From Acholeplasmatales bacterium (GTDB lineage Bacteria; Bacillota_I; Bacilli_A; ML615J-28; CAG-313): a DNA stretch of 64,000 nucleotides. Of this stretch, positions 3,829-57,751 are shown one piece after another. Location: the NCBI GenBank assembly GCA_003539625.1, contig DPOU01000008.1:26041-90040 (forward strand), read 5' to 3'. The notes under the pieces were generated by a model. That model had not been told where the DNA came from, did no database searches, and saw nothing but the letters and a program-made list of their open reading frames with translations. A program made the position numbers and the translations under genes. Every line of letters starts with the position of its first letter. Within the stretch, counting starts at the first letter, position 1.

Positions 3829-3854
3829 GTATGCTAGGAAAGCATACCTTTTTT
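3828..3854 (+). terminator. rho-independent terminator
   Basis: Stem GGTATGCT / AGCATACC, then TTTTTT. Confidence 0.7.
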
Positions 3855-3883: not shown

Positions 3884-3909
3884 GTTCAAAAAGGTATACC
3901 TTTTTGGAC
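3884..3909. repeat. 26-bp palindrome GTTCAAAAAGGTA|TACCTTTTTGGAC (copy A1)
   Basis: The 20-bp core CAAAAAGGTATACCTTTTTG (3887-3906) is a perfect palindrome and is identical to 42873-42892. Confidence 0.85.
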
Positions 3910-39812: not shown

Positions 39813-41880
<2,068 letters not shown>

Positions 41881-41958
41881 ATTATATATCTAATTTAAAA
41901 CAACGAAAACGTTTTCATGTCGAATAATTAAACATTCGTTTGCTTTTTGACGGAAAAG

Positions 41959-41967
41959 TGGTATAAT
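41959..41967 (+). promoter_or_regulatory. extended -10 promoter element upstream of the first SipW-type peptidase
   Basis: TGgTATAAT. No well-spaced -35 element. Confidence 0.4.
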
Positions 41968-42027
41968 ATAACAGTCAAGACTGTTATTATTTGCCTCATG
42001 TAAAAAAATGAAAGAGGTAATGCAAAA

Positions 42028-42687
42028 ATGAACAACAAAAAAATATCTAAACAAACCATAATTGGAATAATATTAATAGCAATATTTTTGCCAATAATAG
42101 TAGTCAATATGGTAATCGTGATTAAAGGGGCGGTTAATCCAACTAAATTTCCAATGGTATTTGGTAGAGCGCCACTTATCGTTGAATCAGATTCAATGAC
42201 AATTGATCGTAAAGCACGCACAGGTGCTTTCAATAAAGGGGACCTAATCTTTATTAAAAAAGTCAATCCAGAAACACTTAAGAAAGATGACATAATTACT
42301 TACTACAGTGCAGATGGTTCGATAATTACACACAGAATTGCGGAAGCCCCATTTTATGAAGAAGGAAAATTAACCTTTAATACAAAAGGTGATTTCAATT
42401 CTCCTGTAGTGGTAAGTGTTCCAGCTGAAGATGTAATTGGATTATATACTGGTAGAATTCCAAAAATGGGAAAGGTTGCAATGTTTTTGCAAACTCCATG
42501 GGGAGTAATAGTTTTATTAGGAATTCCTCTACTAGTTATATTTTTGATTGACTTTTTCAATAAACGCAAAGCTGATCAAGGAGCTCAAGCAAAAATAGCT
42601 GAACTTGAAGCAAAGCTTGCAGAACAAAATAATACAACTGATGTAAATACTAATAAGAGTGAAGACAAAGAAAAACAAGAGGAGTAA
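42028..42687 (+). CDS. sipW: SipW-type (ER/archaeal-type, S26B) signal peptidase I, copy 1
   Basis: 219 aa. N-terminal TM, Ser box VESDSM, GDLIFIKK, His box ITHRI, TKGDFN box, a second TM near the C-terminus, then a coiled and charged tail. Confidence 0.8.
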   Translation: MNNKKISKQTIIGIILIAIFLPIIVVNMVIVIKGAVNPTKFPMVFGRAPLIVESDSMTIDRKARTGAFNKGDLIFIKKVNPETLKKDDIITYYSADGSIITHRIAEAPFYEEGKLTFNTKGDFNSPVVVSVPAEDVIGLYTGRIPKMGKVAMFLQTPWGVIVLLGIPLLVIFLIDFFNKRKADQGAQAKIAELEAKLAEQNNTTDVNTNKSEDKEKQEE

Positions 42688-42797
42688 AAAAATAAGATTG
42701 ACACACTTGTTTCTTGATAATTGAATAAAAAGTAGGGGTTTATACATTAATTGTGTATAAATTGAATTCATTAACCGCTGTTCACTTAAGCTTACAC

Positions 42798-42851
42798 AAA
42801 AACCTGTTTAAACTCCAGCATTATTTTTCAATGAAGTTTAGCAGGTTTTTT
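42798..42851 (+). terminator. terminator-like long hairpin after sipW copy 1
   Basis: AAAACCTGTTTAAACT ... AGTTTAGCAGGTTTTTT (imperfect ~14-bp stem, 20-nt loop, T-run). Confidence 0.5.
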
Positions 42852-42869
42852 ATATGCTTTTAGCATATA

Positions 42870-42894
42870 GTCCAAAAAGGTATACCTTTTTGTA
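42870..42894. repeat. palindrome GTCCAAAAAGGTA|TACCTTTTTG (copy B1)
   Basis: The 20-bp perfect palindrome at 42873-42892 is identical to 3887-3906. Confidence 0.85.
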
Positions 42895-42986
42895 TTGCTT
42901 AAATTAGCTAAATTTATATATTTTCCAACAAATTTTATACAGTTATACACCACTTTTCAACAAAAATTAGCAAAAATAATATAGTT

Positions 42987-43029
42987 AAAAAAGGTATACT
43001 TTTCTAGCAGTAAAGGTATACCTTTTTTG
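42987..43029. repeat. two degenerate tandem copies of the same palindrome (B2a, B2b)
   Basis: AAAAAAGGTATACTTTTC (lacks 1 nt) and AAAGGTATACCTTTTTTG, 25 bp apart. Together they form an inverted repeat. Confidence 0.65.
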
Positions 43030-43212
43030 CACCCCAAAAAATGGGAAATTAACAAAATATTTATATTATTAAATTATTATAATAATATATATAGGCATCT
43101 ATTTTTAGATGAACCTCACCGTAGGGTGAGTTTAAAGTTGATATCAACGTGGCCACACACGATGATATATATTAAATAAACAAATACTTAAAAAATTTAA
43201 AGGAGAATTAAA

Positions 43213-43797
43213 ATGAAGAAAAATAGAATTTTAATTGCTGGTGTAATCACTGCATTCGTTGCATTAATTACATTATCTTTAGTTTCAGGTACTTGGGCTA
43301 AATATACTAGCAAAGTACAAGGCTCTGATACTGCAAGAGTAGCAAAATGGTCATTTAATTATAATGGTGCAGCTTTAAATTCAGAAACCATTACTATTGA
43401 TTTATTTAAGGATAATTATGATGGAACAGTAGTAGCAGAAAATAAAGTTGTTGCTCCAGGCACTAAAGGTCAAACAAAATTTGAATTAAAGAACATGGGT
43501 GAAGTTAAAGCAAATGCACAAATTGTTTTAGAAATTACAAATTTAAATGAAATTCCACTTACATATAAAGTTGATGGTGTAGCACAAGAAGTAACTGGTG
43601 GAAAAATTATAATTGATGCGGTTGAATTAGGAATTGGTGCAGAAGCTAAAACTATTACTTTATCTTGGGAATGGCCATTTGAAACAAAAGATACTGGCGG
43701 TAATATTATTGGTGATACTACTGATACTAATTTAGGTAAAGAAGGAACAGCAACAGTAACTGTTAAAGCAACTGTTACTTTCACTCAAGTTGACTAA
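43213..43797 (+). CDS. TasA/camelysin/BsaA-like secreted protein with a SipW-type signal peptide; putative major fibre subunit
   Basis: 194 aa. SD AAAGGAGA. Basic n-region plus h-region, then SGTWA-KYTS. VAPGTKGQTKFELKNMGEV strand pair. Ends TVKATVTFTQVD. Confidence 0.65.
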   Translation: MKKNRILIAGVITAFVALITLSLVSGTWAKYTSKVQGSDTARVAKWSFNYNGAALNSETITIDLFKDNYDGTVVAENKVVAPGTKGQTKFELKNMGEVKANAQIVLEITNLNEIPLTYKVDGVAQEVTGGKIIIDAVELGIGAEAKTITLSWEWPFETKDTGGNIIGDTTDTNLGKEGTATVTVKATVTFTQVD

Positions 43798-43847
43798 TTC
43801 AAAGAGTATAAAATAATTAGTAAATAAATTCAGTTAATTAATTAACA

Positions 43848-43907
43848 AGCCACAAAACAAAACATTAATACAAGAACAAAGATAAAATTGTGGCTTTATC
43901 TTTGTTC
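43848..43907 (+). terminator. nested hairpins after the putative major-subunit gene (partial terminator or attenuator)
   Basis: 13-bp stem GAACAAAGATAAA / TTTATCTTTGTTC. Alternative stem AAGCCACAA / TTGTGGCTT. Only a weak T-run follows. Confidence 0.45.
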
Positions 43908-44026
43908 CAACTGTTTTGTAAAAAGTAAGAATAGTGATATATATCACATTCTTAACAAAGTATATTATTTATATTGGTATATTTTGTTAAGAATATATAT
44001 GAATAACATTAAGGGGAGTATGTAAT

Positions 44027-44845
44027 ATGAGAAATATAGATAAGAAAATACTCAGTTATTATTTGTATTTTAGAACAATAAAAGATTATGACAAAAAAGT
44101 TGTAGCACGAGTTAAAGGAAACACAATATTATCAAATGATGAAGAATTCTTGGAAAATGTTTCTAGTGGTAAGTACGGCTTACAAATGGATGAGAGTTTA
44201 AAATACAATATATATAGTATTAAAAATAACAAAGTTGTAGCAAAAGTAGATAAACATTTAAATACCTATTCACTTAATGGAGTTTACTCAGGTACTTTGT
44301 ATGACATGACTAAATTCTTAAGAATTGTTGTTGGATGTATTGTCCTAGCATTAATAACTATATGTTTAGTTTTTACTAATATTGCTAAAACAAGTTCTGA
44401 TGTAAAACCTATATCATTAATTGTGAGTGAGATTGATGGTGGGATTGTAAGTACAGAATGGAACATTTTTGGAAAATATAAAGATGACAAGGTTATTTAT
44501 CCAGGTAAGAAAGGTGAATATTATTTTGAATTAATAAATAAAAATTCAAAAGCATTAAATATTGATATAAATTTAGATGAAGTAAATGAATATAGTATTC
44601 CGATGATATTTAAATTAAATTTGCATGAAAGTGATAATTCAAATATAAATGACTACTATGTACCTGCAAATAGTTTGGAACTAAATAATATTTATATTCC
44701 CGCAAACAGTTCAAGAATATTTAAATTAGAATGGTATTGGAAAAATAGTGGCACAAACGATAAAGATGATACACAAATTGCTTCTACAGGACTTGCCACA
44801 TATACAGTAAAAATAACTGTTAAATCAGTATTAGTATACGAATAA
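44027..44845 (+). CDS. type-II membrane protein: cytoplasmic N-domain + TM + TasA-like ectodomain (putative fibre anchor or assembly factor)
   Basis: 272 aa. About 95 aa lie before the TM (FLRIVVGCIVLALITICLVF). The ectodomain shares YPGKKGEYYFELINKNSKA and KLEWYWK...ATYTVKITVKSV with the 43213 product. Confidence 0.55.
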   Translation: MRNIDKKILSYYLYFRTIKDYDKKVVARVKGNTILSNDEEFLENVSSGKYGLQMDESLKYNIYSIKNNKVVAKVDKHLNTYSLNGVYSGTLYDMTKFLRIVVGCIVLALITICLVFTNIAKTSSDVKPISLIVSEIDGGIVSTEWNIFGKYKDDKVIYPGKKGEYYFELINKNSKALNIDINLDEVNEYSIPMIFKLNLHESDNSNINDYYVPANSLELNNIYIPANSSRIFKLEWYWKNSGTNDKDDTQIASTGLATYTVKITVKSVLVYE

Positions 44846-44867
44846 AATTTTGAAAGGGGGTACCCTA

Positions 44868-47138
44868 ATGACTAAAAAAATAAAAATTAAAAAAGCTTAT
44901 ATCTTTGCGTTTGCTTTTGTGGTACTTGTTGTATTACTAGCTATTAGTGGTACCAAAAGTAGCAAAACAGATGCTAAGTATTTTACGGAATTAGATAGTG
45001 ATGCTACAACAGCCCATGTTGCAAAATGGGACATAAAAGGTGTAACTAAAAGAGATGGCAAATCTATTAATCTTGCTGCAGGTTTCAGTAAAAAACTAAA
45101 TGAGGGAGATACAGGAAGTTGGTATTTTCAAATTTCTAATTATTCGGAAGTTTATGCGGCAATATCTAAGCGTTCTAAAATACGTTTTAGATTAGACAAT
45201 GATGGCTATACAGATACTAGTGTTAACGAAATAAAATGGGATTTTTTAGAAGATCTTTCAAATAATCCGATAGAAAATCCAATAAGTTTTGAAGTTAACA
45301 TATACAATTCAAGTGTTGAAAATTTATTAACTTATCAATTAAAAAGCAATCCATCAGAAGTTATTTCATATGACGCCTATTCGCAATTAACAAATAAAGC
45401 AGATTATGATGAAGTTATAAATTCTAATGTTGCGAATTGCGAGTTATTCAAAACTTCAAGTTCACTAACATTTAAAAAAGCCTTCGAAAAAGATGAAAAT
45501 GGTAAAACGATATATTTCTATTATGCTGATTTAAGTTTTGAAAATATTACCGATAGCCAATTAGATGAAATATTAAAACTTGGTTTAGGTGATACCAGAG
45601 AAGACGTGACAATGCAAATAAAATGGAATATCGGTCAAAACGTAGGTGGCGGTTCTATCAGCAACAATACTTACAAAATATATGAACTAACCGACAATCT
45701 TTTAAACGCAACTTATAAAAGTTATGAATTAGTTAAAAATAATTCAATATATATATCATATGATTTGGTTGAAAATGCTAATGAATATAAATATTACTAT
45801 GTTAGTAATTCATCTTCTTCAGTAGTTAAAAACGGATATGGTGCTAATGTTGAATATAACGGAAGTTATCTAAATGTAAGTAGTTATTCTAATTTGGTTG
45901 ATTATTATAATAATTATACTAGTGAACCAACATTTAGTTTACAATCCATTACATTCGACTACTATGATAATAAATGGAATTCAAAAGATGCAACAATAAG
46001 TGCGTTATCATCCAAAAAATATAGTGAATTGACCATTGATGATATTGCTAAATTAGAAAGCTGTTCAGTATATGAAACACATTATTTTGCTTATAACTAT
46101 TCAACTGCCGATTTAAATAACTACGCTAATTATATGAATTATAAAAATTATAAATCATTTATCGAGAACACAAAATTCATAACAAATGATGCTACTAGAA
46201 CATTTGATGTTAATAAATATCAAATTACAGATAGAGTAACTGCTACAGGTAATGATTATATTGTTACAAGTGTTAGTAGTCTTAATGCTAAACAATATTT
46301 AGATACATTTAAAAATAATGAACCAGTTTTTACAATAGCTAATAAAGAAGTTACATTTAGTGAATTAACTACTAGTGATATTACAACAATTACAAGCGAT
46401 ACCTATAGTAATTTAGTTTATAATCAATATTTAAAATTTTTAAATGATTGTAAATATGAGTCTAATAATAATTCGCTTGGTGCCACATCTAAAGCTAAGA
46501 TAAAAGAATACTATGAAATAGGTACAACGACATATTGTATTGTAACATTTGACAATGATGCTAAAACGTATTTAGATGGATTAACAAATAATGAACCTGC
46601 ATTTATATTTAATGCAACGACCGTTTATTATAGTGATTTAACTCCAACTCAGAAGAATTTACTAAATAGTTATAACGATACAAATACACTTACTGATTTA
46701 AAAAATTTAGTAGATAAATATCGTTATTTAGAACATTATAATTATCTTACTAAATCAACAACAATTGAGGAATCATTTGTTATTGATGGTAAAACTTATT
46801 ATATAGTTTCTACTAAACTTAACTTGTATGAATATAATGTATATTTCCACTCTAATCCTATTGGAGAACCATTATTTACTTTTACTAATGCGTTAGGGAA
46901 AGAAATAACTGTAAGATATAAACTATTAACTACAGAACAAAAAAATACGATAATGGGTTATACAGTTTCAACTAATCCAACCTATAGTGAATTAACAAAA
47001 ATGATTGAAAAATTAACTTTAGAACAATATGAAAAGTTTGTTTTAGATAATATAAAAGCAATGACTAATGCATCATATTTGGAATATGGTTTAAAGTGTA
47101 GAATTGAATTTGAACTATATGTAGAACAGGTTGACTAA
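44868..47138 (+). CDS. TasA-like protein carrying a ~400-aa tandem-repeat insertion
   Basis: Start at ATG 44868, after AAAGGGGG. Signal helix, then DAKYFTE and TAHVAKWDI. Four repeats, each containing N-EP-x-F. Ends RIEFELYVEQVD. Confidence 0.6.
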   Translation: MTKKIKIKKAYIFAFAFVVLVVLLAISGTKSSKTDAKYFTELDSDATTAHVAKWDIKGVTKRDGKSINLAAGFSKKLNEGDTGSWYFQISNYSEVYAAISKRSKIRFRLDNDGYTDTSVNEIKWDFLEDLSNNPIENPISFEVNIYNSSVENLLTYQLKSNPSEVISYDAYSQLTNKADYDEVINSNVANCELFKTSSSLTFKKAFEKDENGKTIYFYYADLSFENITDSQLDEILKLGLGDTREDVTMQIKWNIGQNVGGGSISNNTYKIYELTDNLLNATYKSYELVKNNSIYISYDLVENANEYKYYYVSNSSSSVVKNGYGANVEYNGSYLNVSSYSNLVDYYNNYTSEPTFSLQSITFDYYDNKWNSKDATISALSSKKYSELTIDDIAKLESCSVYETHYFAYNYSTADLNNYANYMNYKNYKSFIENTKFITNDATRTFDVNKYQITDRVTATGNDYIVTSVSSLNAKQYLDTFKNNEPVFTIANKEVTFSELTTSDITTITSDTYSNLVYNQYLKFLNDCKYESNNNSLGATSKAKIKEYYEIGTTTYCIVTFDNDAKTYLDGLTNNEPAFIFNATTVYYSDLTPTQKNLLNSYNDTNTLTDLKNLVDKYRYLEHYNYLTKSTTIEESFVIDGKTYYIVSTKLNLYEYNVYFHSNPIGEPLFTFTNALGKEITVRYKLLTTEQKNTIMGYTVSTNPTYSELTKMIEKLTLEQYEKFVLDNIKAMTNASYLEYGLKCRIEFELYVEQVD
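45850..47080 (+). repeat. in-frame tandem coding repeats (four units; the last three spaced 273 nt apart)
   Basis: The GAACC(A/T) codons for the E-P of the EP-x-F motif sit at 45924, 46320, 46593 and 46866, giving spacings of 396, 273 and 273 nt. Confidence 0.75.
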
Positions 47139-47140
47139 TT

Positions 47141-47716
47141 ATGGCTAGAAAAATCTTTCGTGTTTTTGAAACCATTATCTTTATTGTTATGATTATTATA
47201 ATTATCTTGTGTTGTATATATATTGTAAAAAGAAAAATTGATAAAGAGAATCCAACTAAAATGTTAGGCCATTATACTTTTGTGGTTATATCTGATAGTA
47301 TGTATAATCCAGAATATAAAGAATCAATTTCTAGAGGTGATATGGTTTTTGTAAAACCTAGAAAGAATGCAGAATACCAAGTAGGCATGATTGTAGCGTA
47401 TCAAAAACCAGGCGATAGTAAACCAACTACGCATCAAATAATTGCTAGAAATGGCGATATGGTTATAACAAAAGGAATAAATGCTAATAATGATCCTGAT
47501 CCTGAATTTGATGTCAACTATATTATAGGTGAGGTAACTTCAGTTTGGCGAGGATATTCAAAAACGGTAAATTGGATAAAATCACCTATTGGAATTGTAA
47601 CTATTGCGCTTATTGGTTTTATACTAATTGAAGGTTTAAATTTAATTGATAAATATTTAAAGAAAGTAGAAGGAAAAACTACTTCAAATAAAGAAGAAGT
47701 AGAACAAAATAAATAA
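47141..47716 (+). CDS. SipW-type signal peptidase I, copy 2 (divergent)
   Basis: 191 aa. N-terminal TM, VISDSM, GDMVFVKP, THQIIA, TKGINANND, C-terminal TM. ATG lies 2 nt after the preceding stop. Confidence 0.75.
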   Translation: MARKIFRVFETIIFIVMIIIIILCCIYIVKRKIDKENPTKMLGHYTFVVISDSMYNPEYKESISRGDMVFVKPRKNAEYQVGMIVAYQKPGDSKPTTHQIIARNGDMVITKGINANNDPDPEFDVNYIIGEVTSVWRGYSKTVNWIKSPIGIVTIALIGFILIEGLNLIDKYLKKVEGKTTSNKEEVEQNK

Positions 47717-47730
47717 GAAAGGGGAAGAGG

Positions 47731-48423
47731 ATGTTAAAGAGTATTTTAAAAACTAAAAAAATATTGTATGTGTTTTTATATGTAGTATTTGTTTTTGTCG
47801 TGTATTTAACATCATCGACTCTAGCAAAATACAGTACTAAACAAGATCCTAGTGGAAACTTTAATATTGGTGATAAGTTATATTTCTGTTATGAACGTGG
47901 TGATTTATATCGTAATAATCAAGTTATAATTGGAGTTCCAATTAATGAATATATTTATGATGAAAATGGTAAAGTGATTGAAGAAGTAAGAAGAATTGAA
48001 ACAATGAATGTTGCGCCAGCAGATACACTAACATATCATTTTAGTGTTGCAAATGTGAATGAAGCAACAGGTGAACAAAATGGTGTAGCAGGATATTTTA
48101 AGATTTCCGCAACTTCTATATTAAGTATGCCCGCATATCGTAATCCTGATGGAACATCACAAGCAAAAACTTGGAACATTGCATGTACAATTTCTTATCG
48201 AAAAGTATATAAAAATGGTACCAAAACGCAATTTAAAAATTTAACAAGTGATGCAAATATTGATTTACCAGTCTATGATGAAAATGACGATAGCACATTT
48301 ATGAAGTATGAATTTCAAGTATATGTAGTATTAGATGATCAAGTAAGAGCAAGTTCAGATGACGATTACGTTGACGCAACATCTACAATATATTTGTTTA
48401 TTGATGCTACTAATAATGATTAG
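47731..48423 (+). CDS. TasA-like secreted protein (putative minor subunit)
   Basis: 230 aa. Signal helix, then STLAKYSTKQ. VAPADTLTYHFSVANVN strand pair. C-terminal TSTIYLFIDAT. Confidence 0.5.
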   Translation: MLKSILKTKKILYVFLYVVFVFVVYLTSSTLAKYSTKQDPSGNFNIGDKLYFCYERGDLYRNNQVIIGVPINEYIYDENGKVIEEVRRIETMNVAPADTLTYHFSVANVNEATGEQNGVAGYFKISATSILSMPAYRNPDGTSQAKTWNIACTISYRKVYKNGTKTQFKNLTSDANIDLPVYDENDDSTFMKYEFQVYVVLDDQVRASSDDDYVDATSTIYLFIDATNND

Positions 48424-48434
48424 GAGGTGCTACG

Positions 48435-49601
48435 ATGAATTTAAAAAAGAAATTCTTTTGTTTACTGACAGTATTAGTAATAATAAGTGGAGTATTGTTT
48501 GCAATGCTAATCAATAGCATTCCTAAACCAGCTGAAATTGAAGGTAAATATATTAAAAGTGAAAAAGATGAAATTAGAGGATATTATACTTCGTTGTACT
48601 TTGATTATACTGGACAAAATTCAGTAGTTGTATTAGAAAATGGTGTAAGTTATGCATCGTTTAAATTAACGAATTATATTGGTGAAGATGTAACCAAACG
48701 TGATATTGAATATAATATAACAACAGTTAAAAAGTTTTATGACGCAAAAGGTAATGAAATAACTAACCCTGATGGTAGTGAGGACTTATATGTATTAGAT
48801 GTATGGGGAACTCCTCAAAAGGTTGGCAATGATACTTGCAAATACGAATTTAAAGTAGTAAGTAATGATGGTGAAAAAAGAGGTGACAACTATCTATTTT
48901 CTTATGAAACTAGTGGTAGCATCTCAATAGGTAAAACTCATAACTTAACAGTTGGAATTAAAAGAAAAAGTGATGTTGAAGAATTGAAAGATACAATAGA
49001 ACATATATCTATTGTAGTCCAACTTAATAAACCATATACACAAGTATATGTTATCAATATGATAGTATCTAATCGTTTAATTGCTTTTTCACAAATTGAT
49101 AATACTTTATTTGATATTGATTTTAAGACATTACAAATTCAAACCGCAAACGTATTTTCACATGCGGGGAAAGATGAAAGATATTCACCAGATGGAACTA
49201 GTCTATACGATGGTAAAGCATTTTTAGTAGAACTTACATGGAAAAATTTAATTTTTAATGAAGATGATTTAAATAAAATACATAATGGCTTTGATTTAGA
49301 ATTACAAGAAAAACTGTTAAGTGGTGATGCAAGTAATATAGATATAAGCAAACCTTATGTTTTTAGTATTACTAGTTCAAATAAATCATCAGGAACGCTG
49401 GTTTTATATATACCACAAGCTGCAGATTTTAGCCTTGATTTTTTACCAACAAATCAAAGTGACTATGAAATTAAGGCCAAAGTAAAAGTTTGTATGAAAG
49501 ATAATGAATATAAGTTATATGATACTAGTCTTGGTGGTTATGAAATGGTAGATGATTACATTATTGTAATGTCAAGTGATAAAACAAAAATTACAAAATA
49601 A
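48435..49601 (+). CDS. secreted or anchored protein with the [AG]KY motif (putative two-domain minor subunit)
   Basis: 388 aa. SD AGGAGG. Signal/TM helix, then IEGKYIKSE. Composition is beta-rich. Confidence 0.45.
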   Translation: MNLKKKFFCLLTVLVIISGVLFAMLINSIPKPAEIEGKYIKSEKDEIRGYYTSLYFDYTGQNSVVVLENGVSYASFKLTNYIGEDVTKRDIEYNITTVKKFYDAKGNEITNPDGSEDLYVLDVWGTPQKVGNDTCKYEFKVVSNDGEKRGDNYLFSYETSGSISIGKTHNLTVGIKRKSDVEELKDTIEHISIVVQLNKPYTQVYVINMIVSNRLIAFSQIDNTLFDIDFKTLQIQTANVFSHAGKDERYSPDGTSLYDGKAFLVELTWKNLIFNEDDLNKIHNGFDLELQEKLLSGDASNIDISKPYVFSITSSNKSSGTLVLYIPQAADFSLDFLPTNQSDYEIKAKVKVCMKDNEYKLYDTSLGGYEMVDDYIIVMSSDKTKITK

Positions 49602-49621
49602 ATAAGAAAGGAGAGCTACCT

Positions 49622-52600
49622 ATGAAAAATAGCTCCAAAAGAATATATATTATTGGTTCCTTTATTATGGTATTGCTAATTGGATTGAGCATTTTTCTAA
49701 TTGGTATGTTATCCAATAATACAAAGAAACCTCAAGCCGAAGATGGTTCAGTATACTATACTATAAAGGTTCCTAAAATAACTGTAGTTTCAATATATGT
49801 AACTGGACAAGGAGTAAATAAAACTTCTTCAACATTATATGAAGACACATATACAGTAGAAGAGGGTACAAAAGTTGTATTAAGAGCAGTGAATGAAACC
49901 AAAATATTTACTAATTGGTTAATAACTGATGAAACTGAAACAACTATTATTGATAATACATCAACAACTGCTCGACTTGAAATAACCCCTAATCAAAATC
50001 TTGTTGTAAGTGTTAACCGTCGTGATCCATTAATAAGTGATTATGGGAAATATATGGCAAATAGCTTTGTATTAACAAAAGATAGTGAATTCTTACTTCT
50101 TCAAAAAATATTTGATGCGGGAGAAGACATTTCAAAGATAACTAATGTCATTGATGCATATGAGTACTTCTTCAAAGAAAGTAGCGATTATCAAAATGAA
50201 ACTAATAAAGTTTCTGCTATAGCAAATAAATATTTTGATATTATCCAAAATGGTTATTATTTAGTATCACACAGTTTTTCTATTTTAAATGGTGGCTTTG
50301 AAGGAATAGGCAATGAAACATATCCTTTCAAGGGTGTCATCTGTGGATTGAATAATAATAGTATATCTAATTTATTTTTAACAATTACTGATGTAGCGGA
50401 AACAGAAACAGGAAATCTATATCGTGGTTTGTTTAAAATCATTGATAATAATGCCTTAATTAGAAATCTTAACATTAATATGTCAATTGGTGTAAATGAT
50501 ACCACTAATAGTACTGGTGTTGATAATGTTTATGCGGGGGGAGTTGCAGGTATAAATAATGGTGCGATTATCATAAATTCTAAAGTTACAACTAGACATT
50601 CAATAATCTGTCAAAATGCTAATATATATGCAGGAAGTATTGCGGGGATGACTAATAACGGAAGTATCGATGATATAAGTGACATAACTTGCAATCAAGC
50701 AAATTCTGCTTGGATAATTGAAACAAAAGCAATAGATAAAAATATATATGCTGGTGTTGTTTCAGGAAAAGCAATTAACACTTATGTAAAGAAAATAGTT
50801 GTTAAAGCAGATAATTTTTCAATCGGCACAAGAAATAATTCTAGTAATGTTTATAGTAGTTCAACAAATATATATTTAGGAACATTATTTGGACAATATA
50901 TTGCAGAAAGTCCAATGAGATTAGAAAATATAGATGTAAACTCAAATGATAGCGTAAATTATCGAGCATTAATTTCAACAGGTAATGCATATGTAAGTCC
51001 ATTTATAGGATATATTAATGCAAGTTCAGATATTATAATTGGTAAAGTAACTCTAAATTTTGGTAAAGCTAAAGCAATGTTTAATGCAACTACAATTGAT
51101 TTAAATAGTAAAGGAAACGTGTACGTTGGTGGATTAGCTGCTAAAGTTGAAGGTAATAATTTGAAAGCTAATGATGATTTTAAATTGTTTATTACAAAAG
51201 AATCAATTGATGGTAAATCATATAATAAATATGGTTCATTATTTACTGGTAATGTAACAATTGAAGCAATGCAAAATGGAACTGGTGATGGAAGTACTTA
51301 TGGAAAAGCCATAACAGGTGGTCTTATTGCAAAGGGATATTTTGATATAAATGGTGATGTAAATAAAAAATCAGAAATTATTTTAAATGATCAATCATCA
51401 ACCTTAAATATCAAATCAATACAATCTTCTACCGCAAGCACTACAAATAGTAATAAATCAGATATTGAACATTGTATTTCAGGATTAGTATTTGGTATTA
51501 TTAGTGAAAATTCTATAAAAGGTTATAATTTCGAATATATTAACATATATGCGAATAATGCAAATATAATTTCAACACGTGAACTTGATTCAAGAAATGT
51601 TGGTGATTTACACACAAGTGGATTTGTGACATATGCAAATGGCGGTACTTTCTCAAACATAAAGATGTTGTTAAATAAGAATGTAATGGAATCAAATAGC
51701 TTATCATATGCAGTTCAATATGGTTCTAGTGCTAGTAGTATAGAAGGAAATAATACTTTTACATCTTCATTTATTGCTGAGGCAAAGGGTGCTACTGTAG
51801 ATAATATTTTAATAACTAGCTATGATTATGAAAAAGAAGAAGAAATTGGAACGGATTTAAAAATATCAGCGATTCAAAATTCACAAACTGGTCAAGTTAA
51901 CAAAAACTATTATTGTGAAAACTATGTTGGTGGTTTAATTGGTAGATTATTTGATACAAATGTAACAAATTGTATATATTATGGTTCATTAAGTGAAGAT
52001 GATTATATTCAAATGCAAGGACATCAAAGTCCGGACTCAGCTTTTATTGGTGGATTAATAGGCTTTATTAAAAATAGTTCAACTGTAACTATAAGTAGCA
52101 ACAGAATAATTAATGTAACAATTTATGGTTCCGCAACTTCAACTAATGCTTCCTATAGTAATCCTGATATATATGTTGGTGGTGTGATTGGAGCTGCATA
52201 TTTTGAAAATTCTAGTATTGCTAGAACAATAAAACTAGATGATAACTATTTATGTAACTGTGATATAGTAGGTATTGGAAATGAAAGAATAGAAGTTTAT
52301 GTTGGTGGTATAATAGCTGGACTTACTTGGGCAAGTTCTACAACTACTATAAGTAATTGCTATGTATATGGATCAAAAATAGTTGCAACAACTAGTGGTA
52401 TAAAAAATAATGGTCATGGTAAAGCATATGCAGGTGGTATTTGCCCTTATGTATTTTCAGCTTCAAGAGTCGTTGTTAAAAACTCAGTTGTTATTAGTAC
52501 AGAGATAAAATCAACAAGTCAAAGTGAAGCAGCATATGCGTATGGTTTAACTGGCGGAAATGGCAAAGCAAATAGTACCATTAATAATTGCTATACAAAT

Positions 52601-55600
52601 GCAGATATTTCAGCAAGTGGAAGTAATGGTTCATATGTATATCCAATTGCTGATGCTTTAAATAATAATTCTGCTGCCAATTATTATGTAAAACAAAACA
52701 TTACTAATATTACTTCTAGTACATATGGGACAGCTTTAGATTTTTCTACTAAATCATTCACAACTTCACAAGCAGTTGATATTTTTACTGAAATGGAAAA
52801 TTCAGACAAATATAGTAATAAATATTATCCAATAATTAAAGGAAAAGATAAATTTGAGGTAGCTTATAATTCCGGGAGCGTGACTACAATTAGTCGTATT
52901 AAAACTAATGTAACTGATGTTGCTGAAATTTGGATTAATGCTAAATCAAGTGGTTCAAGTAGTAGACCAAATAATAGCATATGGGTTTCTAAAGATACAA
53001 TTTTTGATGATGGTTGGTTCAAACTAGGTGAAGTAATGCTTGTGTCAGGAACATCATCAAATGATGCTTATATAACTGATTACCGAATAACTTATTCTAA
53101 AGATGATGCACTATATGAATATAAAGATGGCATGTTTGTCAATAAAAACTATCCATATAATAGTGTTGAAAAAATAGGTTATGAAGAAGCTGATACAAAC
53201 GAACTATTTAATGGTAAAAAAATTCATAAAGAAATTACAATTAAATTAATCGATAGAATGCCAAATTTAAATATTGGTTTTACTTCAACAGGTACATCAT
53301 CAAGTGAATATCAACCAGTTTTCTATGATAAAGATGGCAATGAAATTACTAATTTTTCTTTAGAATATTTTGGTGTATATAACTACGAGTATATTGAAAA
53401 TACCAATTTATGTACTTATGAGTTTACTTTTGTTCCTAATATCGACTATATGCAAAATAATACATTCTATCTACAATTTAAAGTAGGTAGTAGTGATCAA
53501 TACTCTTTAGAAATTATTAAGATAAATTTAATTTGTAATACTATAAATTTAGTTGGTGGTACATATGTAGATTATACAAAACCATTAAACTATGATGAAG
53601 AAAATATTGGAACAAGCGGTAAACCATATTTGATTAGAAAGGGTAGTACTACTAAATTTATCCCAATCATAACAAGAGGAAATGATGAAAATAATACTAG
53701 ATTAATTGATGAATTAAATGTTGATAAAGTAACTTATTCAGTAGATGGTGGTGGAACTATTAATGCCAATGGTGAATTTAAGGCAAATGCTAATGATTCT
53801 TCAACTACAACATATATAGTTACAATAAAATTAAAGAATTCTGATGTATCAATAAAATTATACTTTAAATTAGTTGATAAATATGATGTAACGTATGCAT
53901 CAATAGGCTCAACAATCGATGCCTTGACTTACGCGACAAGTGATGCAAATTACTACATTTTGAAGAGTACAAATCTAGAACATTATGGCGGATTCCCTAA
54001 AAAATTTGACGTTGCTATTGGCAGTGTTACATATGATTTGAATGAAATAATTACTAAAGGATGGATATATGACAAAACTGGTCAAACTATTAATGCTTGG
54101 GATGTAGATGTAGAATATTACGAATTGCGCATTCCTCAAAATAGTATAACTGGTACTATTAACATTGATATTGAATTAAACATTGTATATTCAATTAATT
54201 TTGAACTTCAATGTGAAAACTTTAATCCTAATTTTAGTGGAAATAAGAGTAAAACATTTAAAGTAATTGCTGGAACAAAATTTGGTGAATATTTTACTGA
54301 TAAAATACAAAAAGAAATTAGTTCTTGGGTAGATTCAGCTAGAGTATTTGGTTACGTGCCAAATGGCTTTTATCTTGTTGATTCCGCAAATACCGTAGAA
54401 TCATATGGCGACAGTTTAGATAAAATTATTGAAAATAACATTGAAATTCAAACATCATATTCGTTCTATGCAAGATGGAGCTTCTTAATAGAAATAATTG
54501 AAGCACCAGGTACCAATGTTGTAACAAGTTTCCCTGATAGCTTTATGTATAAATATGGTAAAGATATTAGTGCAGAAATGACTGATGAAGAAATTGCGGC
54601 AATAAAAAAATACAACGAAAGCTTGAGTTTAAATCGCGCAGTAACTATTCCTATTAACAATAATAGAGGTTATATTTTTACAATTGTAAAAGATAAAGGA
54701 TTTATTGGAGAAGCTGAAGTTAAAGCATACATTGTATCAAAAGATTCTAATTCTTCAACTGAAAAAATAATCAAAGAAATAAATGTTGAAAAATATCATG
54801 AGAATATGTATTTGTATTACATAGCTCCTGAAAAAATAACTGGATATCTAGTAATTGTAACGTCAGTAAGTAATTCTGAAATAATTGTTGGTGAGAATAC
54901 CGCAAAAGTTTCGGATGAAATTCTCCCTGAAGATGGTATCTATACATTTAAATATATAGTTAATCATCGCAATACAGAAGATAGTAAGAGTTACATATAT
55001 GATAGTGGTTTAACAAATCGTTCTAGTAATTTAAGCTTAACAAAAGACTTATTAATTCAATTTATGAAACAAACTTATGATTTAACTGGAAGAGTTATAA
55101 ATGCAGATAAACGTAATTTACCAGCTGGCACAACAATAAAAGTATTCTATAATAAATATGTAAATGGAACAAAAAACGATGCGGATACTACGGTTGGTAT
55201 ATATACTGTTACAAGCAAAAAAGGCATATCTGAAGTTAAACTTAGTGAATTTACTAAATTGAACAAAAATGAAAAAGCATTTGAAGATATTACTTTTGAA
55301 GAATTACTTGGTGATAATGAAAGTGTATCTGAAGTATATTACTTTGTAATAACACCACCTAATGGTTACAATATGTATGATGACGAGGGCTATATTGACA
55401 ATAATATGATTTATGTTGGATATTTAGATGAAGCGCGTGAAGATAGATATGTTCACGGAGTAAGATCAAAAGAGGGGTTGGCTAATATTCCTCTAGAAGA
55501 CCAAGATATCTCGCATATAACTGAACCATTATTATTTGAAACTTCATGCCAACAAAAGCTATATTCAGTTACTCCTTCTCGTAATACTACACTTGTAAAA

Positions 55601-56401
55601 AATAGCAATATTAATTATACTTTTACTGATTATACTAAATATTCAATAATTTCGTTTGATATCTTAAATGCTGATGTAATGTTAAATGATGGAATTATAA
55701 AAATGTATGATGATGTAAATAAAAATTCTATAATTAAATCTCACGAAATTATTAATGGTATTTTAGAATTAGAGTTAGTATTAGGATATGGTAAAGGCGA
55801 TATTGTAATATATGCAAGTAAAACAGGAAGTAGTGATAGCTATGTACATGTTGCAACAATAACTGTCGATGATTTTAATTACAAAACATATAAAGTAACT
55901 TTTGATGCAAGTGAAGACTACCATTATTTTATGATTGATAATGCGTCTCAAAATGAAATACACTTGTCAAAAATTGGATATTCAGAAATAAATAAGGGAT
56001 TGTTGTATGAATTTAAAGTATCTGATTTAGTCCAAAAAACAACAAGTGGGACAACTTACACAGTTATGAAAGATATCGTAGGTGATTCAAGACACGATGG
56101 TAAGAGTTTTATTCTAGCAATTCAATATAAAAATGGTAATGATATTGTTAGTAATTTACCAAGTACTGGTATATCAATTACAATTAATGGGGTAACATAT
56201 TTACCTTATGAAAATGACTTACCAGGAAGGCATACTGCTTATTATGATTTATCAAGTATCTTAAAAGATTTAGATTTATCTAGTATTGAAATTACAATTA
56301 ACATACCAGATGGCTATACAATTTCAACAATAGAATTGTTGGAAGCTAAGTCTATTCAAAAGCCTTCAATGGCAGAAATTAGAACAATTTATACATTTTA
56401 A
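49622..56401 (+). CDS. giant N-terminally anchored surface protein with a GLUG-like beta-helix repeat region
   Basis: 2,259 aa. One TM at residues ~9-30. FEGIGNETYPFKGVICG entry motif. At least 9 repeats of Y-[AV]-G-G-[LIV]-[AI]-[GA], several followed by N-C-[IY]-Y (ENYVGGLIGRLFDTNVTNCIYYG, VYVGGIIAGL...ISNCYVYG). A ~1,200-aa beta-rich C-terminal half. No LPXTG. Confidence 0.6.
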   Translation: MKNSSKRIYIIGSFIMVLLIGLSIFLIGMLSNNTKKPQAEDGSVYYTIKVPKITVVSIYVTGQGVNKTSSTLYEDTYTVEEGTKVVLRAVNETKIFTNWLITDETETTIIDNTSTTARLEITPNQNLVVSVNRRDPLISDYGKYMANSFVLTKDSEFLLLQKIFDAGEDISKITNVIDAYEYFFKESSDYQNETNKVSAIANKYFDIIQNGYYLVSHSFSILNGGFEGIGNETYPFKGVICGLNNNSISNLFLTITDVAETETGNLYRGLFKIIDNNALIRNLNINMSIGVNDTTNSTGVDNVYAGGVAGINNGAIIINSKVTTRHSIICQNANIYAGSIAGMTNNGSIDDISDITCNQANSAWIIETKAIDKNIYAGVVSGKAINTYVKKIVVKADNFSIGTRNNSSNVYSSSTNIYLGTLFGQYIAESPMRLENIDVNSNDSVNYRALISTGNAYVSPFIGYINASSDIIIGKVTLNFGKAKAMFNATTIDLNSKGNVYVGGLAAKVEGNNLKANDDFKLFITKESIDGKSYNKYGSLFTGNVTIEAMQNGTGDGSTYGKAITGGLIAKGYFDINGDVNKKSEIILNDQSSTLNIKSIQSSTASTTNSNKSDIEHCISGLVFGIISENSIKGYNFEYINIYANNANIISTRELDSRNVGDLHTSGFVTYANGGTFSNIKMLLNKNVMESNSLSYAVQYGSSASSIEGNNTFTSSFIAEAKGATVDNILITSYDYEKEEEIGTDLKISAIQNSQTGQVNKNYYCENYVGGLIGRLFDTNVTNCIYYGSLSEDDYIQMQGHQSPDSAFIGGLIGFIKNSSTVTISSNRIINVTIYGSATSTNASYSNPDIYVGGVIGAAYFENSSIARTIKLDDNYLCNCDIVGIGNERIEVYVGGIIAGLTWASSTTTISNCYVYGSKIVATTSGIKNNGHGKAYAGGICPYVFSASRVVVKNSVVISTEIKSTSQSEAAYAYGLTGGNGKANSTINNCYTNADISASGSNGSYVYPIADALNNNSAANYYVKQNITNITSSTYGTALDFSTKSFTTSQAVDIFTEMENSDKYSNKYYPIIKGKDKFEVAYNSGSVTTISRIKTNVTDVAEIWINAKSSGSSSRPNNSIWVSKDTIFDDGWFKLGEVMLVSGTSSNDAYITDYRITYSKDDALYEYKDGMFVNKNYPYNSVEKIGYEEADTNELFNGKKIHKEITIKLIDRMPNLNIGFTSTGTSSSEYQPVFYDKDGNEITNFSLEYFGVYNYEYIENTNLCTYEFTFVPNIDYMQNNTFYLQFKVGSSDQYSLEIIKINLICNTINLVGGTYVDYTKPLNYDEENIGTSGKPYLIRKGSTTKFIPIITRGNDENNTRLIDELNVDKVTYSVDGGGTINANGEFKANANDSSTTTYIVTIKLKNSDVSIKLYFKLVDKYDVTYASIGSTIDALTYATSDANYYILKSTNLEHYGGFPKKFDVAIGSVTYDLNEIITKGWIYDKTGQTINAWDVDVEYYELRIPQNSITGTINIDIELNIVYSINFELQCENFNPNFSGNKSKTFKVIAGTKFGEYFTDKIQKEISSWVDSARVFGYVPNGFYLVDSANTVESYGDSLDKIIENNIEIQTSYSFYARWSFLIEIIEAPGTNVVTSFPDSFMYKYGKDISAEMTDEEIAAIKKYNESLSLNRAVTIPINNNRGYIFTIVKDKGFIGEAEVKAYIVSKDSNSSTEKIIKEINVEKYHENMYLYYIAPEKITGYLVIVTSVSNSEIIVGENTAKVSDEILPEDGIYTFKYIVNHRNTEDSKSYIYDSGLTNRSSNLSLTKDLLIQFMKQTYDLTGRVINADKRNLPAGTTIKVFYNKYVNGTKNDADTTVGIYTVTSKKGISEVKLSEFTKLNKNEKAFEDITFEELLGDNESVSEVYYFVITPPNGYNMYDDEGYIDNNMIYVGYLDEAREDRYVHGVRSKEGLANIPLEDQDISHITEPLLFETSCQQKLYSVTPSRNTTLVKNSNINYTFTDYTKYSIISFDILNADVMLNDGIIKMYDDVNKNSIIKSHEIINGILELELVLGYGKGDIVIYASKTGSSDSYVHVATITVDDFNYKTYKVTFDASEDYHYFMIDNASQNEIHLSKIGYSEINKGLLYEFKVSDLVQKTTSGTTYTVMKDIVGDSRHDGKSFILAIQYKNGNDIVSNLPSTGISITINGVTYLPYENDLPGRHTAYYDLSSILKDLDLSSIEITINIPDGYTISTIELLEAKSIQKPSMAEIRTIYTF

Positions 56402-56406
56402 AAAAG

Positions 56407-56437
56407 AACGTCAATCTTTAAAGAGGTTGACGTTTTT
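56407..56437 (+). terminator. rho-independent terminator ending the locus
   Basis: Stem AACGTCAA / TTGACGTT, then TTTT. Confidence 0.7.
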
Positions 56438-56487
56438 GAAAAAATGTGTATAATATATGTAATAAAATGATGTTGGGAGGAGCTATA

Positions 56488-57069
56488 GTGAAAAAAAGAA
56501 ATGAAAAGACTTTTAACAAAAAGAAAAATGAAATAATGGAAATAAGTTATGATTGTTATGCCGAACACGGATTAGCTGGAACAGGGATTAAAACAGTAAT
56601 GGATGCGTGTGGAATGTCTAAGGCAAGTATATATACATATTTCGATAGTATTGATGATTTAATACTTCAATCTACAGCTCATTTTATGATTGAAACTGAG
56701 TTAGCTTATATGAGATTAGCACCTAAGAAAATAGAAGATGTTGATAAATTTATTGATGAAACCCCATATTGGGCTAGTAAAAAATATGGTAAGAAATATC
56801 GACTCATGTACCAAATATATACACATCCCAAATATGTTGATTATGGTAAGAAATTCTTTGATGGTGTAAATAATAGATATATTGAATATTCTGAAACGCT
56901 TGAGAAAAATTTAGGAATACCCAAAGATGAACTATTGCCACTAATTTTTATATTCGTAAATGCAACAATTCACTACTCAGTATTTGAGGATGATTTCTAT
57001 TTAAAAGTTCAATTACAGCTAGTGAAAATGGCAATGGCACAATTAAGTGAAAAATATTTGAAAAAATAA
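56488..57069 (+). CDS. TetR/AcrR family transcriptional regulator
   Basis: Probable GTG start at 56488, 7 nt after GGGAGG. HTH GTGIKTVMDACGMSKASIYTYF. Confidence 0.75.
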   Translation: MKKRNEKTFNKKKNEIMEISYDCYAEHGLAGTGIKTVMDACGMSKASIYTYFDSIDDLILQSTAHFMIETELAYMRLAPKKIEDVDKFIDETPYWASKKYGKKYRLMYQIYTHPKYVDYGKKFFDGVNNRYIEYSETLEKNLGIPKDELLPLIFIFVNATIHYSVFEDDFYLKVQLQLVKMAMAQLSEKYLKK

Positions 57070-57169
57070 TTTTAAAAAACTAACAAAATTGTTACTTTTG
57101 TTGTTGATTTTAATAACAATAAGTATTAAAATAATAGTGCTTTATTAATTATAAAAAAGGAGAATCTTA

Positions 57170-57751
57170 ATGAACAAAGTTAAAAAATTTTTTACAAAGC
57201 TTAAATGGGAAAGTATTATTGCCGCAATATTAGCAATTGTAGTTGGTGTTTTGTTTATTATATTACCTAAAGATTCAGCTGATGTATTATGCTTGATTGC
57301 GGGAATATTATTAATTTGCGCTGGTGCTTTTACACTTGTTGCCTATATTTTTAGTGGTTTCTTTCTTGGAGCTCACTTATTAATAGTAGGCATAATGCTT
57401 ATACTTCTTGGTACTTTCTGTTTGACAAATCCAGAAAATATTATGAAAGTATTAACAGTGTTATTTGGTTTATACATTGTTATTGATGGTACTACATCAA
57501 TTGTTGATAGTGTATATTGTGCAAAAGCAAAAATCAAGGGTTGGGGATTATTATTAGTACTTGCTATCCTTTCAATTGGACTTGGTACTGCCGTAATGTT
57601 TTCAACATTCGATACAATTATGATATTTGCAGGATGCTCATTAATTATTGACGGTGTATGCGATATTATCGAAACCATTGTATTTAGCCACAAGATTAAA
57701 GAAGCTAAGAAGAAATTATTAGAAGGAAGCAAAATTATTGATATAGAATAA
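57170..57751 (+). CDS. DUF308/HdeD-like membrane protein
   Basis: 193 aa. Six TM helices built from repeated G-x-rich helix pairs. Confidence 0.55.
   Translation: MNKVKKFFTKLKWESIIAAILAIVVGVLFIILPKDSADVLCLIAGILLICAGAFTLVAYIFSGFFLGAHLLIVGIMLILLGTFCLTNPENIMKVLTVLFGLYIVIDGTTSIVDSVYCAKAKIKGWGLLLVLAILSIGLGTAVMFSTFDTIMIFAGCSLIIDGVCDIIETIVFSHKIKEAKKKLLEGSKIIDIE

Follow-up and report, generated by a model that had tools for sequence, protein, structure and literature searches.

A conserved two-peptidase gene cassette of gut Firmicutes that may encode a sortase-independent cell-surface fibre

A 64,000-nucleotide (nt) stretch of the genome of an Acholeplasmatales bacterium (GCA_003539625.1, contig DPOU01000008.1, positions 26,041 to 90,040; hereafter the window) contains a run of eight open reading frames (ORFs), g1 to g8, which encode two signal peptidases, several secreted or membrane-bound proteins and one giant protein, and which we consider here as a candidate surface-fibre system (Table 1). 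A preliminary description of the window, made from the sequence alone, reported eight co-directional genes of which the last six are tightly packed. The ORFs agree with this, all lying on the plus strand between 42028 and 56401 with successive intergenic gaps of 525, 229, 22, 2, 14, 11 and 20 nt; a TTG at 44850 is a second possible start for g4. G+C content is ~28% across the whole window, and composition is unbroken at the locus. By hydropathy, g1 and g5 each have an N- and C-terminal pair of hydrophobic segments, g2, g4, g6, g7 and g8 have a single N-terminal segment, and g3 has a single internal one. Every motif quoted in the preliminary description was found in the window products. In Pfam and NCBIfam scans of all eight products, the non-peptidase proteins fit no family. 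Two familiar surface-assembly routes find no counterpart here: none of the window subunits has a C-terminal LPxTG motif with a hydrophobic and positively charged tail, as sortase would require, and the prepilin route is excluded, no prepilin signals being found in the window products.

Table 1. Genes and non-coding features of the g1-g8 locus, and fused giant proteins at related clostridial loci
Feature	Coordinates	Strand	Description
g1 (SPase A)	42028-42687	+	SipW/archaeal-endoplasmic reticulum (ER)-type signal peptidase (SPase) I, 219 amino acids (aa); N- and C-terminal transmembrane (TM) segments, charged cytoplasmic tail
Palindrome AAGGTATAC(C/T)TT, three copies	42877-42888, 42991-43002, 43013-43024		in the 525-nt g1-g2 spacer
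g2	43213-43797	+	putative major subunit, 194 aa; leader ...SGTWA/KYTS, beta-sandwich body, C-terminal Q-V-D
Structured RNA after g2 (candidate)	43848-43907	+	13-bp hairpin 43874-43907, loop AUUGUGGC 43887-43894; arm GCCACAA 43849-43855
g3	44027-44845	+	putative membrane anchor, acceptor-only subunit, 272 aa; TM 91-124
g4	44868-47138	+	g2-like minor subunit, 756 aa, large insertion; leader ...TDA/KYFTE, TAHVAKW, terminal EQVD
g5 (SPase B)	47141-47716	+	second SipW/archaeal-type signal peptidase I, 191 aa; TKGD Asp -> Ile
g6	47731-48423	+	divergent 'B-type' minor subunit, 230 aa; leader ...STLA/KYSTK
g7	48435-49601	+	'C-type' adaptor (putative), 388 aa; leader ...EG/KYIKSE, unplaced N-terminal segment, tandem beta-sandwich domains
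g8	49622-56401	+	giant secreted protein, 2,259 aa, putative adhesin; ordinary leader, weakly GLUG-like repeat region
C-giant fusions (Clostridia metagenome-assembled genomes)	L017:12473-20591, L018:12483-20600, L019:12544-20600, L073:4355-12865		SKY cleavage motif retained

The distribution of the locus was surveyed with one genome per species, giving 262 loci (numbered L001 onward). Uncultured Bacilli, as gut metagenome-assembled genomes (MAGs), supplied most of them together with Clostridia, Oscillospiraceae, Lachnospiraceae and Erysipelotrichaceae, with human, ruminant, chicken, rabbit and mouse as hosts. Among the Bacilli records are 'Staphylococcus sp. CAG:324' and 'Coprobacillus sp. CAG:698', besides others labelled Mollicutes or Tenericutes. 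The order g1 to g8 is fully collinear in at least nine species-level genomes (L001, L002, L006, L008, L009, L011, L022, L035 and L068) and is found in truncated form at L003, L005 and L007. A more general cassette comprises SPase A, g2, a TM-anchored g2-like protein, SPase B, a subunit B (motif A[RK]Y..VAKF..EQxD), a protein C (AKY..FYFxSD) and a giant protein, to which the window adds g4; its core is present in Erysipelotrichaceae and is widespread in Clostridia. A protein of at least 1,000 aa follows the cassette in 42 of 61 loci, and both peptidases are present in 49 of the 57 loci with enough flanking sequence. Flanking genes are syntenic in the closest relatives only, so the conserved unit is g1-g8. 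The supposition that the genes travel together in relatives is thus borne out. The impression that their composition is peculiar to this genome is not, the window holding a local version of a cassette carried by hundreds of gut Firmicutes species.

The peptidases were originally described as two enzymes of the SipW/ER-archaeal rather than the LepB type, and profile searches lead to the same assignment. Both exceed the curated cutoff (51.85 bits) of TIGR02228, the archaeal/ER-type signal peptidase I model (g1, 72.8 bits; g5, 62.8 bits), and g5 passes Pfam Peptidase_S26 (23.7 vs. a cutoff of 22.9), while against the bacterial LepB-type model TIGR02227 g1 reached only E = 0.03 and g5 gave no match. 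The Ser and His are kept in both, within the boxes VESDSM, GDLIFIK, ITHRI and TKGDFN in g1 and VISDSM, GDMVFVK, TTHQII and TKGINAN in g5, and g1 matches human SEC11A/C (E = 2e-4) with the His and TKGD boxes in register. Scores of 76.5 and 40 for g1 and g5 against the Bacillus SipW equivalog model fall below its cutoff of 190, so neither is orthologous to B. subtilis SipW.

Comparison of 80 related loci yielded 72 'upstream' and 75 'downstream' enzymes (147), across which the Ser-Met nucleophile box, the His and TKGDxN are kept. Ten of the 75 downstream enzymes, and g5 as well, have Ile for the TKGD Asp, with Ser and His retained. The equivalent Asp of B. subtilis SipW is reportedly important for activity; with Ile in its place, the activity of SPase B may be altered or may depend on a different acidic residue, the sequence NNDPD following the box. 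The best hit in another locus belonged to the same positional class for every upstream enzyme (72/72) and every downstream enzyme (75/75), and median identity was 33% to the partner enzyme of the same locus vs. 58% to the best orthologue elsewhere. This pattern indicates that the two peptidases are separate old lineages and not recent duplicates. Their genes lie on either side of the subunit genes at most related loci, and a conserved, specialised pair of SipW-type peptidases is therefore a defining feature of the system.

The protein encoded by g2 belongs to a very large family. A word-indexed search returned 984 relatives at E <= 1e-3, none of them named or carrying a Pfam domain, and an exhaustive profile search returned 8,145 clusters (50% identity) at E <= 1e-3 and 4,618 at E <= 1e-10; 'hypothetical protein' was the sole source name found for cassette proteins. 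In an alignment of 244 members, the (near-)invariant residues are T27, A29, K/R30, Y31, A44, W46, A81-P82-G83, N94, V98, W152, W154, D171, Q192 and the C-terminal D/N194. Mean identity within the family is 80% in the cleavage box (residues 25-33) vs. 41% in the mature body, and the cleavage box and N-terminal strand are the best-conserved stretches of the protein. In an AlphaFold2 (AF2) model of g2, the predicted local distance difference test score (pLDDT) is 79.5 overall and 84-94 for residues 81-194; residues 27-40, which span the cleavage site and KYTS segment, have pLDDT ~50-60 and are unplaced in the monomer. The preliminary description had noticed a leader followed by an [AG]-K-Y-type motif in four products. 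Such a motif, in the form [small]-[KR]-Y, does follow the leaders of g2, g4, g6 and g7 and is kept in their orthologues, and the TA[RH]VAKW motif and terminal QVD seen in both g2 and g4 are conserved in both families. At some loci, three to six g2 paralogues lie in tandem (L063:8029-14354, L075:134-5988, L002:1178-3294), among them forms of ~620-650 aa with C-terminal extensions; this arrangement suggests antigenic or functional diversification of the putative shaft subunit.

Three further proteins share the g2 domain. g3 consists of a cytoplasmic N-domain of ~90 aa, one TM helix and a g2-like ectodomain without a [KR]Y site. It matches g2 in BLAST (E = 3e-11) and, with leaders removed, in hhalign (98.0%). 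The match spans g2 mature columns 58-169 only, and g3 consequently lacks the N-terminal strand region. Its orthologues have the same plan, with a cytoplasmic N-domain of ~90-100 aa, a TM helix and no cleavage motif, and Clostridia loci have a TM-anchored g2-like protein at g3's position. g3, and not g8, is the likely anchor of the system. Residues 1-90 of g3 (44027-44300) are conserved in Bacilli-type orthologues and matched no Pfam family; two similar motifs, KVVA[RK]V...N.Y.L...Y.G, can be made out in them by eye, and the cytoplasmic part of Clostridia-type anchors is much shorter.

For g4, the hhalign match to g2 (96.8%, mature parts only) covers columns 1-90, the N-terminal half. Twelve g4 orthologues of 379-501 aa keep AKY and VAKWD together with the terminal VEQVD, so that g4 is a g2-like domain interrupted by a large insertion. 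On visual inspection, the added stretch of g4 resembles about four degenerate units of ~90 aa (...YLD.[FL].NNEP.F....V.[FY]S[ED]LT...), and no significant repeats were detected in it by BLAST self-comparison or Tandem Repeats Finder (TRF). g6 shows only leader similarity to g2 in direct comparison (hhalign 0.7% on mature parts). It aligns over its full length with the clostridial B subunits (96.3% over 157 columns), and these in turn align with g2 (99.4%). Profile comparisons thus indicate that g2, g3, g4 and g6 are true paralogues with one beta-sandwich domain, g6 being linked through clostridial B. Five related substrates had been proposed originally; the relationship stands for the leader, and for the domain it is limited to these four.

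The fifth, g7, has only its leader and cleavage motif in common with the others. As a g2-like paralogue it was rejected (hhalign 0.2% on mature parts, not rescued through clostridial proteins), and it belongs instead with the clostridial C family (97.7% over 216 columns). Its AF2 model is good (pLDDT 83.8; predicted template modelling score, pTM, 0.73), with residues 32-51, which surround and follow the cleavage site, below pLDDT 50, and Foldseek matches it to tandem immunoglobulin-like adhesin and pilin modules, MSCRAMM modules among them, with Cnm at 3e-8 followed by Als, ClfB/SdrE, AgI/II, CfaB and BcpA. No TapA relationship emerged: TIGR04087 gave no match, a profile search of PDB sequences gave nothing relevant, and TapA was absent from the Foldseek top 50. 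By analogy, g7 resembles TapA and AbpB functionally only, in its leader, its predicted free N-terminal strand and its several sandwiches. In L017, L018, L019 and L073, giant proteins of 2,685-2,837 aa begin with a complete C-family domain (E ~1e-46), and this fusion of the C-family domain to giants establishes a functional link between g7-type and g8-type proteins.

g8 itself has orthologues only in the nine Bacilli-type collinear loci, and as a homologue of the clostridial giants it was rejected, no homology being found. One of the clostridial-type giants has a Pfam Beta_helix match and two have weak Listeria-Bacteroides repeats. Leaders of g8 orthologues are of the cleavable AxA type without [KR]Y, and the g8 leader is probably cleaved. 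Against Pfam Glug (PF07581), whole g8 gave no match and 500-aa segments scored 19.0 and 17.1 bits vs. a cutoff of 20.5; a PDB sequence search returned no relative. Hydropathy revealed no C-terminal anchor or sorting signal in g8, and an LPSTG at residues 2179-2183 (56157-56171; 80 from the C-terminus) lacks a hydrophobic or basic tail and is accordingly no sortase signal. Of the '2,259-aa anchored GLUG-like beta-helix' first described, the length holds; the anchoring and the GLUG-like character are weak, given the AxA leaders, the lack of a C-terminal anchor and the sub-threshold Glug scores.

A structured RNA appears to lie between g2 and the rest of the operon. A terminator-like scan detected a hairpin that starts 77 nt past the g2 stop, with loop ATTGTGGC. 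The mean best hairpin free energy (dG) is -20.5 kcal/mol after g2 homologues vs. -10.9 kcal/mol inside the gene, and of 78 loci, 30 have a perfect hairpin of at least 7 bp with GTGG in its loop in the 220 nt that follow g2, compared with 3.2% of random windows. Hairpin stems are unrelated in sequence among the Bacilli and Clostridia loci (L001-L079), and the loops follow the consensus nnGTGGCn. Covariance models matched only just after g2 homologues in 1.3 Mb searched. In an alignment that was itself fitted to the structure, 94.3% of cells are paired, where shuffles give 49.9% and slid controls no more than 44%, and double-sided changes are seen in 10 of 10 hairpin pairs. The hairpin is present in 13 of 13 Bacilli-type sequences. 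In 11 of these 13 loci, 6-9 loop nt are matched by a complementary segment that lies 28-40 nt upstream (chance, 1.9%), with compensatory loop and arm variants that pair GTGGA with TCCAC, GTGGCC with GGCCAC and GTGGCT with AGCCAC. A search of 41000-57500 against Rfam gave no match at E <= 1, and hence no known riboswitch or other RNA in the g1-g2 spacer or the locus. We regard the hairpin as a possible new cis-regulatory RNA that would serve either in attenuation or in processing/stability; it may form a pseudoknot, or alternative helices that act as an attenuator between g2 and the downstream genes.

Whether g2 is TasA-like depends on the level at which the two are compared. A TasA/CalY reference alignment was built for hhalign, and every TasA relative found carries PF12389 (Peptidase_M73). 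In the leader, LVSGTWAKYT of the g2 family aligns with LVGGGTWAAFN of TasA; at motif level, the GTWA/KY site resembles GTWA/AF, in line with the preliminary description. When the g2 model was compared with PDB structures using Foldseek, the top match was the TasA fibre (8aur_A, E = 7.4e-4, probability 1.00), which was also the sole PDB match at E <= 1e-3. The structure search proposed in the preliminary description returned TasA first, with a weak match. Fold-level support from the model is thus suggestive of a g2 system that works like TasA/BsaA, and at the sequence level g2 is not TasA-like.

We consider it rather probable that the locus encodes a sortase-independent cell-surface fibre comparable to the SipW-dependent TasA/BsaA fibres and built from a separate, very large and unnamed family. 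In the proposed mechanism, subunits would be exported by Sec and held at the membrane by their leaders until a predicted cut before K-Y frees an N-terminal segment of ~10-15 residues. The freed segment would become a donor strand in the sandwich of a neighbour, and g2, which would offer both strand and groove, would polymerise as the shaft. g3, with a groove only and an uncleaved TM helix, would receive the final g2 strand and fix the fibre to the membrane as its base. g7, with a strand to give and a different body, would cap the opposite end and carry the giant putative adhesin g8 as the tip, and minor places in the shaft or tip would fall to g4 and g6. Growth would take place at the membrane, each new subunit, still leader-tethered, receiving the strand of the previous one as proposed for BsaA, and the hairpin after g2 would probably set a high ratio of major to minor subunits. 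In gene order, SPase A stands by g2, and SPase B by subunit B, protein C and the giant, which suggests one module for the shaft and another for the tip.

A number of results weigh against this reading. In searches with Pfam PF12389, none of g2, g3, g4, g6 and g7 matched at E <= 1, and the SipW-cognate model TIGR04088 matched no window protein; Pfam and NCBIfam scans of 38 g2 relatives assigned no family, the nearest approach being one weak TIGR04088 match (E = 0.039). The hits of the small proteins to TasA/camelysin or SipW-cognate models that were anticipated at the outset are accordingly missing. PDB sequences, TasA included, yielded nothing with the g2 profile and nothing useful with the single g2 sequence. 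By hhalign, the g2 family and TasA/CalY align in leader columns 1-32 only (31% probability), and the best local match between mature parts (APGTKG..N.sEV / KPGD..N.GSLAI, E = 0.37) falls on the motif to be expected and is not significant. Because similarity is confined to the leader, g2 was rejected as a member of PF12389 and is not filed there. The fold match is modest (query TM-score, TMq, 0.37), with generic beta-sandwiches and pilin domains next in rank, and there is no evident attachment of g8 to the fibre in this genome. That g2 polymerises by donor strands is an inference, its one indirect sign being the conserved N-terminal segment left unplaced in the monomer model; the polarity of the fibre, and the notion that the two peptidases probably serve different substrates or steps, come from reasoning throughout. 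The multi-subunit donor-strand fibre of the preliminary description therefore gains from the peptidases, the paralogous substrates and their co-conservation; its assembly mechanism keeps the status just given, and its anchor is better sought in g3 than in g8.

The same shortage of TasA homology in the mature domain, the weak TasA fold match and the resemblance of g7- and g8-type proteins to ordinary monomeric adhesin modules would all suit a module that exports and processes surface or matrix proteins which do not polymerise, acting as monomers or in a loose complex with no donor-strand fibre. We think this unlikely, since the N-terminal segment, the best-conserved stretch of g2, is left unplaced when the monomer is modelled, an acceptor-only, membrane-anchored paralogue exists in g3, the final Q-V-D is invariant in g2, and a conserved hairpin follows the gene of a small, presumably abundant subunit; these four traits are typical of fibre systems and hard to explain by monomers.

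The donor-strand fibre that we favour could also exist in a variant that is covalently locked in the manner of BsaA, in which strand donation is followed by a spontaneous intermolecular isopeptide bond. BsaA combines donor-strand exchange with an N35-K74-E56 lock, and its donor segment, residues 28-38, is likewise disordered in the monomer (PMC11580942). In the g2 family, K45 (93%), N94 (99%) and E97 (92%) are conserved. However, no Asn or Lys is invariant within donor segment 30-40 (position 30 is Lys in 91% of members and Arg in 9%), for which reason a BsaA-type lock is unsupported; N94, S96 and E97 sit at a hairpin turn that is also present in lock-free TasA, and K45 lies in the confidently modelled part, so that a bond there could be intramolecular. 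We therefore hold a lock of this kind to be improbable.

The first description of TasA linked it to spores. As a reading of this locus, a coat or appendage of the spore or envelope, in place of a vegetative adhesive fibre, is very improbable, for although TasA homologues are named 'spore coat-associated protein N' in several sources and many cassette hosts are Clostridia, the cassette is found complete in gut Bacilli lineages with small, low-GC genomes, no sporulation genes lie nearby in the window, where the neighbours are housekeeping genes, and the giant adhesin-like partner and membrane anchor favour a vegetative surface structure.

A few model species are known to make SipW-dependent TasA/BsaA fibres, with a single peptidase and between one and three substrates. 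Of the systems described so far, those nearest to the window locus are tapA-sipW-tasA, sipW-bsaA-bsaB-bsaC, B. cereus tasA/calY and the archaeal AbpA/AbpB pili. In tapA-sipW-tasA of B. subtilis (8aur; PMC9674648, PMC10151520), as in the window, a SipW-type peptidase gene stands beside its substrates, and TasA, like g2, has a leader ending in GTWA and is a beta-sandwich subunit; TapA has been proposed to start or anchor the TasA fibre by strand complementation (PMC9674648, PMC10151520). The window differs in having two peptidases of distinct lineages and not one, and in adding a TM-anchored acceptor-only paralogue, more minor subunits, a giant protein and the invariant C-terminal QVD. The cleavage context is A/KYTS in g2 and A/AFND in TasA, and the g2 mature domain has no detectable sequence homology to PF12389.

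Like the window, sipW-bsaA-bsaB-bsaC of C. perfringens (PMC7395162, PMC11580942) unites in one operon a SipW peptidase, a number of distant TasA-like paralogues and a secreted partner of larger size. In BsaA, an N-terminal donor strand of ~10 residues is disordered in the monomer, and membrane assembly with a leader-tethered new subunit has been proposed (PMC11580942). That system has one peptidase where the window has two, its N-E-K isopeptide lock has no clear equivalent in g2, and its BsaC is a 70-kDa von Willebrand factor A (vWA) protein, whereas the window has a repeat protein of ~2,000 aa. None of the NCBIfam models of SipW-exported families matched window proteins, and BsaA was compared by description only.

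The Pyrobaculum AbpA/AbpB pili (PMC9245690) have a TasA-like jelly-roll subunit and donor strands and use no chaperone or usher. AbpB, a multi-domain beta-sandwich protein of ~400 aa, is the proposed first-strand donor and adhesin, the role that we propose for g7 together with g8, and a comparable initiator or adhesin role has been proposed for AbpB/TapA (PMC9245690). They differ from the window in their archaeal host, the lack of a dedicated peptidase and their other accessory genes. Chaperone-usher, type V and sortase pili are comparable in polarity logic only: they have a tip adhesin or adaptor, a major shaft and a base subunit, and in them, as in our model, the ends are set by subunits without a donor strand or without a usable groove. 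Unlike these pili, the window has no chaperone, usher, sortase or LPxTG signal, and it combines a monoderm host with SipW-type peptidases.

BsaA/TasA relatives have been described as very divergent, with paralogues that can share an operon with signal peptidases, 'suggesting... heteropolymers' (PMC11580942). As that work already treats multi-paralogue operons, the general idea is not new. It lists 2,172 BsaA-like proteins, against which g2 was not matched; within this limit, we found no literature description of the g2 family, the peptidase-lineage pair, the acceptor-only anchor, the C adaptor and giant fusion or the RNA element. Nor was a published functional account of the two-peptidase gene set found, in keeping with what the preliminary description had supposed.

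The g2 family is as large as many Pfam families, yet unannotated, and the conserved seven- to eight-gene cassette occurs in hundreds of gut Bacilli and Clostridia species, including the cultured Lachnoclostridium sp. An138 and Ventrimonas faecis CLA-AP-H27 (loci L046 and L069). Tentatively, and at odds that we would put somewhat short of even, the cassette could define a distinct, widespread class of sortase-independent Gram-positive pilus. Such a pilus would have a donor-strand g2 shaft grown from the membrane, a g3-type acceptor-only base, a donor-only g7-type tip with a giant, fast-evolving adhesin, two non-redundant SipW-type peptidases and a pseudoknot-like GUGGC RNA that sets stoichiometry. 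If so, current annotation would have wholly missed a pilus type of many gut commensals, one that brings its own anchor, a tip adaptor and a giant, variable adhesin, and that bears on colonisation, aggregation and attachment to host or particles. The conserved peptidase pair raises the question of a division of labour among bacterial ER-type signal peptidases.

Several minor features of the locus and its surroundings were noted. The perfect palindrome AAGGTATACCTT has three copies in the unusually long g1-g2 spacer, one with 1 mismatch, and more at 3891-3902 and 3839-3850; with up to 2 mismatches there are 11 matches in the window vs. 4.0+-1.7 in shuffles, three of them clustering in the spacer. 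These palindromes could serve a dimeric regulator as its operator, or could belong to a small repeat element. Promoter-like matches at the locus were no commoner than in shuffles. The 5′ untranslated region (UTR) of g2 (43108-43170) has a GC-rich hairpin, CTCACC-GTAG-GGTGAG, and the palindromic GTGGCCAC atop a second small hairpin. An upstream GTGGC in this UTR was dropped as a conserved element, being found in 0 of 74 loci, and may be genome-specific or due to chance.

A TetR-like ORF (56446-57069) lies just after g8. Directly upstream of g1, a 307-aa lipoprotein-like ORF (40957-41880; leader ...LLTNCSC) is syntenic only in L001, L003, L009 and L011 (51-53% identity) and is for that reason probably a neighbour and not part of the system. 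The closest relative of the window, L011 (JAMPDF010000004.1), has a complete cassette and is recorded as 'MAG: Prevotella sp.'; its phosphoglucomutase-like and phosphoglucose-isomerase-like ORFs and tgt are 73-90% identical in aa sequence to those of the window and lie in the same order. The Prevotella label almost certainly stems from a mistake in binning or labelling, and the Muribaculaceae and Paludibacteraceae labels on several other loci may be similar errors.

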